Part shown: positions 50,801-59,445 of the stretch, in pieces
How the letters are laid out: each line of letters begins with the position of its first letter
Numbering within the stretch: the first letter of the stretch is position 1
Origin: Spizellomyces punctatus DAOM BR117
Taxonomy: Eukaryota
Assembly (NCBI GenBank): GCA_000182565.2
Contig: KQ257458.1
Direction: 5' to 3' (one strand)
DNA: 64,000 bases
Notes under the pieces: model-generated
Told to the model about the DNA's origin: nothing
The model's database searches: none
Seen by the model: only the letters and a program-made list of their open reading frames with translations
Position numbers and translations under genes: made by a program

Positions 50801-53800
50801 AAACTTCGCAGTAGCCATCTCAGCCGGGCAGTGTGCTCTTTGATTTCTTCTTCAGTAACCCGATCCATTATGTGCAACAGGAATTGTAGCAAGGTCATCT
50901 GCTTAGCTTCTCTGCTTTCTCCTGACCGTGTACCGATAGGGACACTTATTTGCACTTCGGTAACAAGATCGATGAACCGAGGCAGCTGCATGTCGGCACT
51001 GCCGGTTCCCCTCTCCATTCTCTCCACCTGTACTCCCAGCATCAACAATCGAATTGCTTCAGCTACCAGTGTCGCACTCTTAACCCCAGCCACATCGATG
51101 ACTTTATCGTCCGGTCGCCCTAATGTGTTCCACAGCGCGAAAAACAGAACTCGAACAAAAGCTTCGCCTTTTACCAAGTTTCCAAGAGCCTGATGCCCGG
51201 TAGTTATAGGTATTGGTTGCAAGCGAGGTGGTCGGATATAGTCCTCCTCCGCCAGTGGACCGCGCTGTGGACGTTTCCCGGCTCGTTTTGTTAAAAGCTC
51301 CTCCATCTCTTCGCGTTGGTTGCGGGTGTAATGCCAGAACCACGGATCGACCTCTTCATAATACTCTGGCTTCAGTTCATATGTTCCATGGTCACTCATC
51401 CCTTCTGGAAACGTGAAATCCGACAGTTCGGCGAGGACATCATCGAACGACTTCCCATGTGGACTCTCCGGCGCGCTATCTACTAGGCGTTCGGGTATAC
51501 GCTTTTGAAGTTCAGAATAAGCAAGACCTTGAGGCTGGACAGCAAGATGATGTATAATCTCTCGTCTCATCTCCTGCTCTAGTGAATGGGCACAGATTCT
51601 ACTCCGCTCTGTCAACAAGACGATCAAGAGGTGCAAGAGATCCTCAGCAAGATTGGTGAGCTGCCCAGGTTCCAATGCTGTGAGAGCTGCTGCCTCCCGT
51701 ACGCGACCTTGGAACCATGAGACAAGATCAAACCGATCCAAAACCGACGTGATGAACATGTCCGGCCCAACCAAAATCGAAAAGACTTGAAGGAGATACA
51801 AATCCTGGTCATACGATTCTCGAAGCGTGTTTTCACGATAATGCAGGGCCTGGGAACGAATATTGAACCCATTACGAACCCATATTCCAGCACGAATCTG
51901 TGCAAGTAGCACCGTTACTCGCAAGGGAAAGTCCATTATCCTGCAAACACGCTTCAGGTCGACTCCCGAGGCTGGCGCTGGGTGTTCGCTGGTTGACGCG
52001 CCTACACTCTTCAATAATGGAACTATTTTCGTCTCATCGAAGAGGTGATACAATGCCTTCGCAGCAAGTTCCGCGTTTCCAATCTCCTGGAGCACCCTGG
52101 GAACGTGAGCGAGGAGTTGCGCTAAGAACCAATGTAGGGGGTGGTGAAAAGATATAGGCTGCGAAGCAACCCTAAAAAAGGGAACTCTGAAAGGTTTGCC
52201 TGGAACGACTTCAACCAAATGCAATCCATCTTTTCCAGGTATTCGTCGGTCGTGGTTAACTCCAAGTCCCGCAGCTTGTCCTTGTTGCAAGAGGACTTTT
52301 TTAATCTCATCCATTTGCTCCATCTCGCACCACACAGTCAACACAGCAAGAGTGGATGCTGTCGCAGTCTGAAGCTCACTATAATCCCTTGGCGAGTTCC
52401 CAGTTGGTCCCAGGCAATCAGCAGCAAACTTGATTTGTCGTCCAACTTGCAAACTAAGGTTGAAAGCATGCACCCAATGTTCGTCCTCATATTCCACGTG
52501 CTGTCTCGTATAACGTTGTTGTGGATGCATGCCTTGCCAGACCCGACATATATCGAGGAAGCCGCGCACAATGTCGGGATTTCCGCGAAATACACTGTCT
52601 TTTGCTCGATGAGTCGTTAGGAGGTACCGAATGTCTTGAAAAAGATGCCAATAGCGTCTATTCCTTGCGGCCTCTGATTCACATCTGAGCTTAGGATAGT
52701 GCGGGCGGATATCGTAACGGGCCAGCCGTACCGATCCGTTAAAGTCTTTCAAAGAATACTGGGATGGAAGGACATCAGAGAGGTAAAATGCTTTGAGTAT
52801 CAGAAACTGGGTTGAGAGCAGATTGGTATGTGTTGCCAGATATTGTGCTATGGTGGGTACGGTGAAGAGTTGCACAGAAAAGTTTATGATAGAAAGCTCG
52901 TACTCCCGGTCGTGGAATAGATAGGAATTGGCGATCCGCAGGTAATTGCGGGCGAATCGGAATCCTTAAGAATAAAGATGAGATTGTGGAAACGGAGTTT
53001 CTTAAAGGTCCTAAACTCACCCATGACTCTCTTGTACTCGTCCCCACTCACAATCATAGTTCCTATATACAATTCACGTAAGGAATTTCGAGCCTCTTTC
53101 CATAATTTTACATCGGCTAAAAGAAGGTGGTCGATCCTCAATCGTTGCCCTTCTTGGCTCCGCGCCAAATATCGTCGTGCTTCGACTTGAGCATCCCGCC
53201 TCTCGTTATTTATATTGTCATTCATCGCATGTGCCTCCTCCGCAGGATCCAGAATAGCAACATCATCCTCCTCTTCTGAAAGAGTTGGTGAAATCATACG
53301 CCCAGTGAATCGGACTTTGATTTGTCTTCGATTTGCACACATTTCTTCACAGATTAGACGTCGGACCATTGCATCAATAGGCTCGTAAGTCACATCAGTC
53401 ATCCGTCTCACTCCCACTACCTGCTTCGGCAAGTTCTTCAGCCATCCAATCAACACCCCCACTACTTCCTCCCGAAAGGTCTCTCTGGCGGATCGGATCG
53501 ATACAGTCAGCCCAATCTGTGATATGATGCGCGCTATACTCAGCAGGCGCGGCAATTGTGAAGATACTTTGACCACTTGCCGCCCCTTCAATTTGCAAGG
53601 GTGAGTATCAGATATCTGGCATTTCAATTCATAACATCGCCTTACATGGAAGTCTACCGCTTCCGCAACCCCTTTAGCCTCATCATCGTCCACACGAACA
53701 GCTTCCATAACTTGATCAATGACTTCTTGAAAGGAGTGCGTTTCATCGTTCCATAGGACACAGGCAAACTTAAGCTGAGGTTGGCCTAAGCCATCTGGAG

Positions 53801-54757
53801 TTGATTGCTCTTGCGTTTCGGGTGGGTTTGCTTCTTCAATTGCTTCGGTCGATGCTGGCAGAGTTAGGTCGACTGGTGCCTCCATCAAAGTGTCAAGAAT
53901 GAAATCGAAGACCGTGGCAATGGTGGACCGTATTGGTGCTATGACTTCCTATTGGGAATCAACGATACGTCTCAATTACTGCGTATCAGAGGAGGTTTTG
54001 CAGAGTCATACCTCAGGTACTTGAGTATAGGAAGGTGCTATATCTGCTACATTGTGCTGGTCAGAGGGAGAAAGTGATGATACAGACGGGTGCAAATAAT
54101 GGTAGGTGCAATTGATGGGCACCCTCCACGCTTCTGGATCCCCACAGTCACAGCAACCTCCGGTACCCGACGCAATTGAAAACGACGTGTCGTGTCCCTC
54201 GTGATTAGTCGCATGAAAGCAGCGAGAGCAGAATACACAAGTCTCGTCTAAGGCGCAGTTTCTAATCCAAGAGTTGCAGGTTCAGCAATCTTGCGCATAC
54301 CGCCTGGTATATAACAAGCGAGCTTCAACCGAGGAACTAACCTGCATCGATATACGGCTTCGCCCCTCTTAAATACATGCCCACAAGCTTTCCCTCTCTG
54401 TGACTCTTGATATTCTGGTGGTAAACTCGCAGTTGCATTTGCACCAATGATCTCCGTAATTGAAGGCTCGACCGCTACTCTCGACGTCACAGCCGCCCCC
54501 GTTTCCGTCTCTTGAAACACACCCGGTATTGACGAAGTCCCAAAGAGGAGTTCCGGTGAGCCATTAGTCCCCGCACATATTCTCTTGTTCAGCGACAGTA
54601 CGATCTCTTCCGCAACGTCATCGGGTAAGGGGAGGTCGTAGGTATGGCGGAACGGCGACTCATGGAGATAGGCATATAGTTGATCATCAAAGTAGGGGAG
54701 ATCGGAAAGTATCGAAGGAGGCGGAATGTAGACTGGTTGCGGATTGTGATGTTGCAT
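47810..54757 (-). CDS. UBR1: E3 ubiquitin ligase UBR1 (N-recognin)
   Basis: UBR box (CGHVFKRGEAVYRC), ClpS-like VLWNDETHSFQEV, GIWVRNG, RING-type CIFCQE...STCGHVMHVNC...YMCPLCKSLGN, C-terminal PALCLICG and RGRPQYLNQRRY. Confidence 0.94.
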
Positions 54758-55198: not shown

Positions 55199-57531
55199 TG
55201 TCCGATCTGGCTTCACCATTAAAGAACGCCCCGTCGAAACAGCCGATACTCAGCACCTCCCAGATCACAACATGGCTGACGCATTTGACAAGTCGTTCAT
55301 ATGCGGCCCGTCAACGAGAAGCTGCATCACAAATCCTGGCTTTTCTGCGGTCGCCTCTCAACCCACCCATCGCCGAAACGTCCTTTGAAATAGGCAAGGC
55401 GGAAACCCTAAAAATCATGCTCCTTCTGCGTTCAGGCATGCATCACGTCGACGTAAAAGAGGCCACTCTTCTTTTACTGGCCACCATCATTCGTGGTTCT
55501 TCTCCCGCAACAGCGGCAAGGACAGCGGCGCTGCTCGCCGCTGGTGCGTACAGCAAGATCATATCAATTGCCGCAGATACACGCGACGGCCCAGATCCGC
55601 AAATTGCTGGGTTACGATTCTTCTCAGAATATTTGAATGAGGGCGGCGAGACAGCTGCTCGAAAATTCTGCGGATATGCTGAAGGTGATGCCGGCTCGGT
55701 CACTGGCATGGACATATGCATTCGATCTCTACAAGCGGAGGGGGGGAACGTTCGACTTCAGTATTGGGCTGGAGAGTGTTTGAAGAAAGCCGCTATCTGT
55801 ACGGATATGCGACCCCTAATGTTAGATGCGGGCATTCTGAAACCTCTGGCTACATATATGAAGTTGATCTGCTCTGACGGCTCTTCAGTTCTCCAGCAGA
55901 GTTTGCTTGATTATCACACTTTGCTCTTCGAAAGCGTCGCTTGTCTCCTGAAACTGATAACCACCCACTCTGAAGAGGCAAAATTGGTAAGATGATTGCA
56001 ACACTGCTTTTCAGTATTGGACAACTTTAATCTTGATGAAATAGCTGTTGGTCTCGGAAGGGGTCATCCCATCTATTGTATGGTTGCTACGACAAGAGGG
56101 GCGCAACAGCCAAAAGTTGGAGGTAAGGTTCCCTAAGCGTAAACCGCCGTGTATTGCAGATCTCCTGACCGAAGTTTCAATGCTTTTTACCAGGCGATTT
56201 ACGCGTTCGCGAATGTTGTCATAACGCCATCCAGAGAAGCTGAAGAAGCTATACCGCTTCTACTGCAAGTCGCGGCGGAAAGCACCGATGCATTTGAAGA
56301 AGCGGCCCTACGAGCACTCCGTAATGCCCTTGCACGGACAGGAGAAGGGGTCAGACGACGATTTGTAACAGAAGGAGGTGTTGCCATTCTAGGAAAACAG
56401 TTGGGACGAACCGACCTTCAAATAGTGCAACATAGCATTGCCGGCTTACGGAATGTAGCGCTGTTAGATGTTCCACTCGAAGCCCGGCATCAAGTAGCGA
56501 AATTCTGTCCAGATTTTCTTCATCTTCTCAGTCACAAAGATAAAACCGCCCCAGCATGGAAGATCCATCTCTCGATAACCCACCACGCCCTTTGCACCAT
56601 TTGTAATCTCGCCGTAACAGATACTATTGCCCAAGATATCTCAATAACAGGCCGATCAACACTTTTCTCACACATTTATCGTATCATCTTCGACCGGGAT
56701 ATTCCCGATACACCGTTTCGACTGGACGCACTAGCATGTCTCCGGAATCTTTGCATAGACGAAGACTCTTGTCTTCTCATTGCAAGTATGGGTGTGCCCA
56801 AGCTCTTTGAACTCCTCTTCACAGGCTCACCATTCCTCCGCGCGGAAGCCATGGCAGTCCTACGCAATCTCATCCTCCAAAATCGATACTGTTTCGATGA
56901 ATTTTTCCAAGTGGATGGTTTCATCGACGAACTGGTGGCAGATCTTTCATCGCAGTACACTTCAACCCTCCAGCGTTGCGCGGTAGATATTATCCATTGT
57001 TATTTGACCAAAGGAGATACCGCACATAAACGCACGTTTTACGATGCTGACTGTCTTCCTGCGCTCCTTCTTCCAATGGAAGCCGACAACGAGAACAAAG
57101 ATGTTGCTGTTGTTTGCTTCAGAATTTTGCAGGACTATGAGCGGAGGGCTGTGTTGGAATCCAGGGATCACTGGACGCGGATTTGGGTAGACTGGAAAGC
57201 TGAGGATGCAGAGAGGAAAAATGCTAAGAAAGAGAAGAAGGCTAAGGACCGAGAAGAGCGGGATCGGAGACGAATGAGCCGAAAGCGTGCAAAAAAGGAT
57301 TCACGGCAAGACAAACCCTTTTTTGTCAAGAATACTCAAAACAAGGAGGATGCCAACTTGAGCGTATCGACTCTAGGCAAAAACAAGCATCCCACCGCTG
57401 CGTCCTACAGACGACCAAATTCAGCACCACATGGAATCTTGAAATACAGAGCTGCACTGTCATCAGATGAGAAATACTCGCCTGCAACGAGTACTGTTGA
57501 AGTGAAAAAGCGGGTGGTGACATTCAGATAG
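55199..57531 (+). CDS. Armadillo-repeat protein of unknown function with a basic C-terminal tail
   Basis: Repeated ARM helix-3 motifs AALRALRN, SIAGLRNV, ALCTICNL, ALACLRNL, AMAVLRNL. C-terminal KKRVVTF resembles an RVxF-type motif. 5' end not determined. Confidence 0.7.
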
Positions 57532-57675
57532 CATAAGTCAACCAGGTGCAAATAGATATGTGAATAGGGATGCAATGAGTATTCCATGTATACCGCGCTC
57601 TGCGCATTACGACTGAAAATGGCTATCGATGGTTCTATCTAAAGCATGCTAAAAAATGTATAGATATGTAATCGC

Positions 57676-57820
57676 TCAAATGTTAAAACCTTGCGCCCGC
57701 ATGCAATCCTGATGCGCCTTGATTAGATCTGCACATTTTTCTTCTCCGTGCTCAAATACACATTCGTCTCGCGCTTTCCGCGTGTCCGGGCAAGCACAAC
57801 AAGGTTTGCATTCGGGTTTA
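57676..57820 (-). CDS. COX17: COX17 copper-chaperone domain (C-terminal part of the last YHM2 exon)
   Basis: [47 protein letters not shown]: CCxC copper site with twin CX9C. Confidence 0.93.
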
Positions 57821-58965
57821 GCCCCGGTTGACGTGGATGCGGAGAGGGGCGCTGGGGAGGCAGTTGATGAAACGAGCCTGTTTGCCTGTTTTTGCGCTAC
57901 CCAGGCTTTTAAGCTATCTCCACCAAATACCATGCACACCTATGGAGACAGGTCATTTTAATCTCACTGCCGCTAACCTAGGCAAGATTTAAAGATTATA
58001 CGCACCGTCAAATAGACACCCAAGCCAATACGAGGAGTTACTCCACGGTAGAAGCCGAGGAACCCATTCCTTTGCCAAATCCACTTGGCCGTGTTCAACA
58101 GAGTCATCTTGGCAGGTCTATTGGGGTCTTTCACTTGAGACTGCATTTCGACACGAATCACTTCAATAGGTTGGTTCCAGCATGCAAGGGCACCACCGAC
58201 TACTGAAGCAAAGAGTCGCTCAGACACAGTGAGAGGGTTGGCTTTCTCTCCCTCAGGTCGGAAATAGCGGATGCTAGATTCGGTGATACGCGCAATTCCG
58301 ATTCTACTGCCCCAGTTCGTCATTTGTCGCAAAGCTACAGCTGACACGCCTTTGTTCAATCCCCTGATACCCTCGGTCTTTAAAATATCTCCTGCAACCT
58401 TCCAGGTAGAGACAGCCGCTCCCGGATTCTTGTGGCGAGTAACCTCTACTGTCTTCATAAATGTACAGAATCCCATGGTAGTATACGCCTAAATATGCGG
58501 AGTAATGTCAACGTCGCATTGCACTCGTCCAGTATTCAGAGCGAAAGCTGTATAAACCTCACCTGCGCAACGCCTCCTCCCATTCCGGACAATATTCCGG
58601 CGGTTGGACCAGAGAGCCCCAATTTGGTCCTTGCATGATACTCGATTTCGGACGCGGCAAACAAAAGGATAGCTCCCTTCGTCGAAGCTTCAATCCACGC
58701 CCAGGGAATCAACCCTTGATAGAATCCCGCAATACCTCCACGTTGGTACGTTTTTTTGACGGCTGTTACCAGCGAGTCGTTCCTGTTGGCTGTCAGAGAA
58801 CTCAATAACGTGGACTGGCGAGTTTTCTGGATTTGGCTGGACCATACCTGCCATGTGTGTCTTAACGACCTCAAAGGGCTGTCCAAGCGTTGATACCTCG
58901 AAGGTCTGAATGGCGCCTCCCAAAAGAAGGTTGACATAACTGATGGGTTTCTGGGCGACGAGCAT
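57676..58965 (-). CDS. YHM2: Mitochondrial citrate/oxoglutarate carrier (YHM2 type) fused in frame to a C-terminal COX17 domain
   Basis: [11 protein letters not shown]...[77 protein letters not shown] 66-nt GT-AG intron (58005-57940) joins in phase 0 to the ORF ending in the COX17 domain. Confidence 0.88.
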
Positions 58966-59445
58966 GTTGTTAATATACGTTTAACTAAACTGACTTCCTG
59001 CTCCCGCCACATTTCGTTACGTCCGACCTTCGCAATGTACCTTTTGAATTGAGGCTGGCTCGGACTTTGCTACGACAGACATTGTAGGGAGATCTTGTGT
59101 CAAATTACAACCACAGGAAAGTCGGAAGGGGATAGCAAAGATCTAACGAGACATCACGTGATTTCATTGATCTGCCGATTGGATAAGCGAGGAGTATCGA
59201 TCCGTTGGATAATCTACTTTGTAGCTTTCAGCCAAAAAGTCAGCAGCCATGCTATGCCATGCGCAATATTCAATACTAGGAGAGTAGAGGAATAATCTGA
59301 GAACGTTCAGAGCACGAGTTTATCCGGTTGCACCCTGCGAGTAGATAAGGACATTGGCAGGAGTAATGCATTTTCAATTCTTCCGAAGTGCCAAAACGTA
59401 TTGGTATACATCAGTCACACCATCAACTAACAATCGATAGACTCC

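Follow-up and report, generated by a model that had tools for sequence, protein, structure and literature searches.

On its minus strand, the window examined here (a stretch of 64,000 nucleotides from Spizellomyces punctatus DAOM BR117) carries a gene in which a YHM2-type mitochondrial carrier reads on, in frame, into the copper chaperone Cox17. The splice model of this gene has five exons (59082-57676) and a CDS of 1119 nt, giving 372 residues and a stop codon: three Mito_carr repeats come first, followed by a Ser/Thr/Ala/Pro linker of 24 residues and, last, a complete COX17 domain. The best explanation, to which we give somewhat better than an even chance, is that a carrier fusion at the level of the genus has produced a stable Cox17 paralogue tethered to the inner membrane. 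The fusion appears to be young, narrow in its distribution and possibly redundant with a free paralogue.

All features of the gene lie on the minus strand and its four introns are all GT..AG. In the splice model, exon 1 (59041-59082, donor GTACAT) holds the ATG at 59082 and 14 codons (42 nt) of N-terminal tail. Exon 2 (58848-58950) encodes carrier helix 1 and the beginning of repeat 1, and is matched by Mito_carr on its own (E 0.0061). Exon 3 (58563-58789) supplies the remainder of repeat 1 and helix 3, as placed by the splice model and Pfam, and exon 4 (58006-58488; Mito_carr E 1e-18) covers repeats 2 and 3 and closes with the first half of helix 6. The original prediction had proposed a 66-nt, phase-0 intron ahead of the helix-6 exon, and this is what we find: intron 4 (57940-58005, 66 nt) interrupts helix 6 and is in phase 0, because exons 1-4 total 855 nt. 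Exon 5 (57939-57676) is a single open frame in the stop-to-stop analysis, with 87 codons and the TGA that the splice model uses as its stop (57676-57678). RNA reads extend the transcript through a 3' UTR (57573-57675) to a poly(A) site near 57573.

Letter for letter, the five-exon model is SPPG_05585 (XP_016607377.1, S. punctatus DAOM BR117, 372 residues), whose public name is "uncharacterized protein". The gene had earlier been given the span 57676-58965, of which the end at 57676 stands and the start does not: the ATG at 58965 falls inside intron 1 of the five-exon model. Starting at 59082, with the additional 42-nt exon 1, recovers the conserved KK that precedes helix 1 in the alignment with relatives; this start seems to suit the orthologues better than the intron-1 ATG and is most likely that of the gene. 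The public model of the fusion in Spizellomyces sp. 'palustris' (hereafter S. palustris) begins at an ATG matching a position in intron 1 of the S. punctatus model (window 58951-58965). Elsewhere in the window, 2680-2804 is a run of 125 N, an assembly gap.

The join between carrier and chaperone lies inside exon 5. The first 18 codons of this exon (57886-57939) encode the second half of carrier helix 6 and line up with the C-terminal helix in 13 unfused relatives of the YHM2 type; the next 24 (57814-57885) form the S/T/A/P-rich linker, whose homologue in stand-alone chytrid Cox17 is the N-terminal region; and the rest (57679-57813) encodes the COX17 domain. Since half of the helix, the linker and the domain share one exon, no intron is needed between carrier and Cox17. 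The claim that helix 6 runs without a stop through the linker into a full Cox17 is thus borne out, and so is the claim that no ATG separates the helix from the Cox17 core: the sole in-frame ATG of exon 5 ahead of the core is a Met within helix 6 (exon residue 3).

One can suspect that assembly or annotation merged two adjoining genes, and other Cox17 'fusions' in databases do resemble merged or fragmentary models. However, in this gene the carrier helix and Cox17 are in one exon, and the identical fused frame is present in two species that were assembled and annotated separately. Contigs from three sequencing runs agree with the window over 57200-58756 (0 differences, 0 gaps); these runs are DNA, as their contigs contain introns, and the strain sequenced in them may be that of the assembly, so that their support is weak and not independent. 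A stop or an indel in the linker, which the original prediction had named as a reason to give up the fusion, is seen neither in the three contigs nor in the comparison of the two species. An artefact is, in our view, hardly credible.

The carrier part is an ordinary member of its family. Pfam finds three Mito_carr stretches in the whole protein (E 2.5e-30), the third at residues 210-301, and all of the 120 carrier relatives listed (the best 120 of 2131) are Mito_carr proteins. Those among the 120 with a functional name are called YHM2 or citrate/oxoglutarate carrier and share 64-81% identity with the fusion, in agreement with the YHM2 type first proposed; this assignment is made by the closest relatives among the matches listed. 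The nearest unfused orthologues among the matches listed are those of Borealophlyctis (315 residues, 81%) and Gaertneriomyces sp. JEL0708 (302 residues, 79%). In the alignment, the carrier part shows 77-81% identity with unfused orthologues and no visible alteration, and it holds every invariant column shared with 13 unfused YHM2 relatives. S. punctatus has a second, unfused YHM2-type paralogue, SPPG_04580 (64% identity). Pairs of YHM2-type paralogues, about 64% identical to each other, are present in several chytrids, among them S. punctatus, Gaertneriomyces, Borealophlyctis, Polyrhizophydium and Rhizophlyctis; in Spizellomyces, the fusion involves only the 'A' type of the two.

The Cox17 part is canonical as well. 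Over residues 43-87 of exon 5, the Pfam profile COX17 (PF05051) scores 72.1 bits (E 4.5e-20; the cutoff is 24.9), and on the whole protein 69.1 bits (E 4e-19, residues 328-372). The domain is complete, covering profile positions 2-47 of 47. The KPCCAC motif, with its adjacent copper-binding cysteines, and the twin CX9C can both be read in the translation of exon 5, and their columns are invariant in a Cox17 alignment of 12 sequences. By sequence, the nearest solved structure is human COX17 (2RN9, E 9.2e-18). The trait of the family that is missing is that of a small, free, soluble protein with its own start codon: here the domain is the C-terminus of a 372-residue membrane protein.

To locate the fusion point, we aligned the two fused proteins with 13 unfused YHM2-type relatives. 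All 13 unfused relatives end 2-10 residues past KAWVAQKQ, so that Cox17 was joined at the natural C-terminus of the carrier. On the Cox17 side, the stand-alone protein of S. palustris (g03760, 74 residues) aligns with the fused tail from residue 5 to its end, and the fused copy is without the MG start of stand-alone chytrid Cox17. By this comparison of sequences, what was lost at fusion is approximately the first four to six Cox17 codons, including the start, plus the stop codon of the carrier. The fused copy is a duplicate, because S. palustris also keeps its stand-alone Cox17; the core of the latter is identical to the fused core, and hence the fused domain could be redundant. In S. punctatus, tblastn found no stand-alone COX17 elsewhere in the 64,000-nt window, and no protein of this species is among the 33 Cox17 relatives.

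The divergence between the two fusions is unevenly spread: 10 of the 290 carrier positions and 4 of the 24 linker positions differ between S. punctatus and S. palustris, and the Cox17 core, over 44 positions, shows 0 differences; there is no indel (linker versus core, Fisher p=0.013). Within S. palustris, the fused and stand-alone copies differ at 11 of 26 positions of the N-region and at 0 of 43 in the core (p=4e-6). This conservation suggests purifying selection on the fused Cox17 domain. Gene conversion could also contribute to the identity of the paralogous cores, and so could the general conservation of chytrid Cox17 cores, which is high across the 12-sequence alignment. In a small Cox17 tree, the tails of the two fusions group together (support 97/95) within a larger Spizellomycetales group (87/91); the Spizellomyces stand-alone copy may or may not be sister to them in this tree.

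RNA evidence came from one run under the same species label, with 60-letter reads, of which about 6 in 100 were read, and which is strongly 3'-biased. On the sense (minus) strand, depth was 130.8 in bin 57570-57643, 234.3 in 57644-57717, 184.6 in 57718-57791, 44.3 in 57792-57865 and 14.6 in 57866-57939; it was 1.04 in 57940-58013, which is almost all intron 4, then 3.53 in 58014-58087 and 0.26 in 58088-58161. In five reads, loose ends made of T runs before 57573 mark the poly(A) site. The Cox17 exon is therefore transcribed, and polyadenylated about 100 nt past the stop. The RNA check proposed at the outset, across 58005-57676, was thus answered in part: exon 5 is covered and ends at a poly(A) site, but exon 4 is covered by approximately four reads, and no joint over intron 4 passed the threshold for listing in this 3'-biased run read at about 6 in 100. 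The dip over intron 4 and the rise in exon 4 suggest spliced continuity, on those four or so reads. On this weak RNA evidence, a single fused mRNA is likely.

The same profile can be read as the sum of two products. A separate small Cox17 would then come either from transcription that begins internally, within intron 4 or exon 5, or from initiation at the helix-6 Met; a fused isoform might or might not exist beside it, and the fused frame would perhaps be largely incidental. The ATG at exon-5 codon 3 is in frame and could begin a product of 85 residues; the Cox17 exon has about 50-60 times the RNA depth of exon 4, and away from the poly(A) site this depth drops more steeply than it does in the neighbouring convergent gene; and the absence of a listed joint across intron 4 points the same way. 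Yet a steep fall is what a 3'-biased library should give, and the fall is smooth, with no step, and followed by a return of reads in exon 4 above the intron bin. Moreover, a product begun at the helix-6 Met would carry half a hydrophobic helix and no MG start, and the carrier requires exon 5 to complete helix 6, so the fused frame is translated whenever the carrier is made. We consider two products rather unlikely, and continue with the tethered protein as the preferred reading.

Around the gene, a convergent plus-strand gene (ORF 56143-57531) has plus-strand reads up to bin 57644-57717, and its 3' end overlaps that of the fusion gene by about 100-150 bases (window 57573-57717). Further along, window 52887-53948 on the minus strand holds an open frame of 354 residues with a ClpS-like match (E 6.9e-07). 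Among the neighbouring ORFs we found no Pfam link to copper or respiration; one has this ClpS-like match and four are without a Pfam match.

We sought the fusion in other organisms. A search for longer relatives of the exon-5 protein retained 2 proteins from 89 candidates. The first, S. palustris g05718 (363 residues, 95% identity), has both Pfam families and the same fusion, and SPPG_05585 sits in the same 90% cluster; the second is a flatworm model of 249 residues that combines an alanine-racemase-type domain (Ala_racemase_N) with Cox17. PF05051 is found in 1 of the 120 YHM2-like proteins listed (best 120 of 2131), and only in the Spizellomyces cluster. A HMMER pass with the exon-5 protein over 1.84 billion representatives gave 505 matches; among the 150 listed there is no carrier-Cox17 fusion and no protein of at least 300 residues, and Mito_carr is absent from the 10 longest. 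This representative library may miss fusions, because the Spizellomyces fusion is itself absent from the listing (unfused representatives are possible). A metagenome scan with the exon-5 protein found no relative, and in a scan with the Cox17 alignment none of 20 metagenome loci had a carrier upstream of Cox17. The ESM Atlas returned only plain carriers and clusters in which a carrier is combined with EF-hand or Anp1. Within the databases searched, then, the fusion appears confined to the genus Spizellomyces; its parts look ordinary, and the combination seems to occur in no other organism searched.

Several other objects were seen in these searches. The only long tblastn match in the metagenome loci (L005) was rejected as a fusion: it is a stand-alone Cox17 of 70 residues in its own stop-to-stop frame. 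Other C-terminal Cox17 joins in databases involve DUF7865, a synapsin-type ATP-grasp (Synapsin_C), a Peptidase_M17 fragment and the alanine-racemase-type domain, and are probably merged or fragmentary gene models. Two Cox17 relatives of 167 and 143 residues (P0157 and P0161) have two COX17 stretches each, and may contain tandem Cox17 domains in one protein.

The original prediction also took the fusion as a possible Rosetta-stone hint, and this part has weakened. Here the carrier would move a copper complex between the matrix and the intermembrane space and deliver it to its own Cox17, or else Cox17 would be a copper or redox sensor gating the carrier, as EF-hand domains do in other carriers. 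It is true that two species conserve both parts and the frame that joins them, that carriers with regulatory domains in the intermembrane space exist (the Mito_carr + EF-hand clusters), and that, according to an excerpt of PMC7924939, a member of the carrier family, SLC25A3/PIC2, transports copper. However, the fusion was seen in a single genus, in one of the 120 listed YHM2 relatives, the carrier part is an ordinary conserved YHM2 carrier, the Cox17 part is a recent duplicate whose free copy persists in S. palustris, and no genomic neighbour points to copper. Functional coupling of this kind is very improbable in our estimation. The same low standing applies to its broader form, a long shot in which the conserved fungal YHM2-type carrier would move copper (e.g. 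as an anionic complex) and load Cox17 directly, and Spizellomyces would have made the partnership permanent.

Mitochondrial carriers have six membrane helices and both termini in the intermembrane space, so the Cox17 domain is expected at the outer face of the inner membrane. An AlphaFold2 model from a 15-sequence alignment is of low confidence (mean pLDDT 60.2, pTM 0.45). Its secondary structure agrees with expectation: it has six long helices with short matrix helices between them, and helix 6 (275-310) spans the exon 4/5 junction; the linker (307-336) falls below pLDDT 50, and a helix hairpin (339-349 and 351-367) reaches about 70.

We propose that a YHM2-type carrier of Spizellomyces lost its stop codon and came to read on into a duplicated COX17, whose own N-terminal region would have provided the disordered linker. 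A tether of about 25 residues would then hold the Cox17 domain to the inner membrane, on the intermembrane-space side; there Mia40 would oxidise the twin CX9C, and the CC motif would hand Cu(I) to the membrane-anchored Sco1 and Cox11. The result would be a tethered copper chaperone produced in a fixed ratio with the carrier. Yeast Cox17 tethered to the inner membrane by a Sco2 anchor supports the biogenesis of cytochrome oxidase (Maxfield 2004, as related in excerpts of PMC7909247 and PMC7924939); therefore, tethering as such should not abolish function. The idea of a natural membrane-tethered Cox17 thus survives in its main part: the frame is real and present in two species, the core looks selected and this reading fits best. 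We infer the rest, namely the topology, one mRNA and a single polypeptide, the absence of cleavage and the hand-off of copper.

That the product is a cleaved polyprotein had been suggested as well. The carrier would in this case be an import vehicle, and a protease facing the intermembrane space would cut one imported chain in the linker, freeing a soluble Cox17. The linker is long, disordered and fast-evolving, as such a scheme would have it, and intermembrane-space proteins are known more generally to be released by proteases from membrane-anchored precursors. But Cox17 is already imported by its own Mia40 route, and cleavage is unnecessary since tethered Cox17 is functional (part of PMC7909247). 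We find a cleaved polyprotein quite improbable, and retain the uncut, tethered protein.

There is a hint that tethering may not have been new to chytrid Cox17. Among the 33 Cox17 relatives, the named chytrid stand-alone proteins of normal length all start with MG[AN]xx[ST], which we take to fit the N-myristoylation pattern of PROSITE. In all, 29 of 166 Cox17 relatives that begin with M have a start of this type, these chytrid proteins included, and it is present in the metagenome Cox17 at L005 991-1203. The pattern suggests that Cox17 may be lipid-anchored in chytrids; if so, the fused copy may have swapped a lipid anchor for a protein anchor.

Our literature search found no published description of a carrier-Cox17 fusion or of SPPG_05585, and the excerpt of the PIC2/MIR1 paper (PMC7924939) does not mention one. 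Since public databases already list the gene model, as an uncharacterised protein, only its interpretation is new. A fused protein that is made and remains intact would be nature's repetition of a classic yeast experiment, which reportedly showed that Cox17 is needed only at the outer face of the inner membrane and need not be free or shuttle from the cytosol. It would also be the first case in nature of a carrier whose C-terminus bears a chaperone domain in the intermembrane space, and a test case for how a substrate of the TIM22 carrier pathway and a Mia40 substrate are imported as one chain. Should a citrate/oxoglutarate-type carrier prove to be linked to copper traffic, this would bear on how matrix copper reaches cytochrome oxidase, a link that is unlikely because the fusion is so narrowly distributed. 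The chytrid S. punctatus can be cultured, and its genetic transformation has been reported, so that tagging of the C-terminus is feasible.

Each half of the protein has close counterparts among known systems. Like the fungal Yhm2 citrate/oxoglutarate carrier (SLC25), the fusion has three Mito_carr repeats and the shared invariant columns; unlike Yhm2, it has 67 additional C-terminal residues (linker and Cox17), and its citrate/oxoglutarate activity is predicted. Soluble domains fused to a carrier and exposed to the intermembrane space are familiar from the aspartate/glutamate carriers (SLC25A12/13) and the ATP-Mg/Pi carriers, whose extra domains face this compartment; those are N-terminal, regulatory calcium sensors, whereas the Spizellomyces domain is a C-terminal copper chaperone. 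With Cox17 itself (human PDB 2RN9/2RNB; yeast PDB 1U96) it shares the full domain, KPCCAC and the twin CX9C, yet free Cox17 has 60-85 residues, while the Spizellomyces copy is without a start codon of its own and follows the C-terminus of a carrier with six helices. Attachment of a twin-CX9C protein to the inner membrane is also known from MIC19/CHCHD3, which requires N-myristoylation and its CHCH domain for import and membrane association (excerpt of PMC3501047). Stand-alone chytrid Cox17 has a similar MGxxxS start, but MIC19 belongs to another family, with another function (cristae organisation), and the fused copy has no MG start. The closest parallel is the engineered Sco2-anchor/Cox17 (Maxfield, Heaton and Winge 2004, J Biol Chem 279:5072, as described in excerpts of later papers), in which a fused membrane segment likewise keeps Cox17 at the inner membrane, facing the intermembrane space. 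The construct was artificial, made in yeast with a single-pass N-terminal anchor; the Spizellomyces fusion is natural, carries a six-helix carrier on its N-terminal side, and is predicted to function in the same place.
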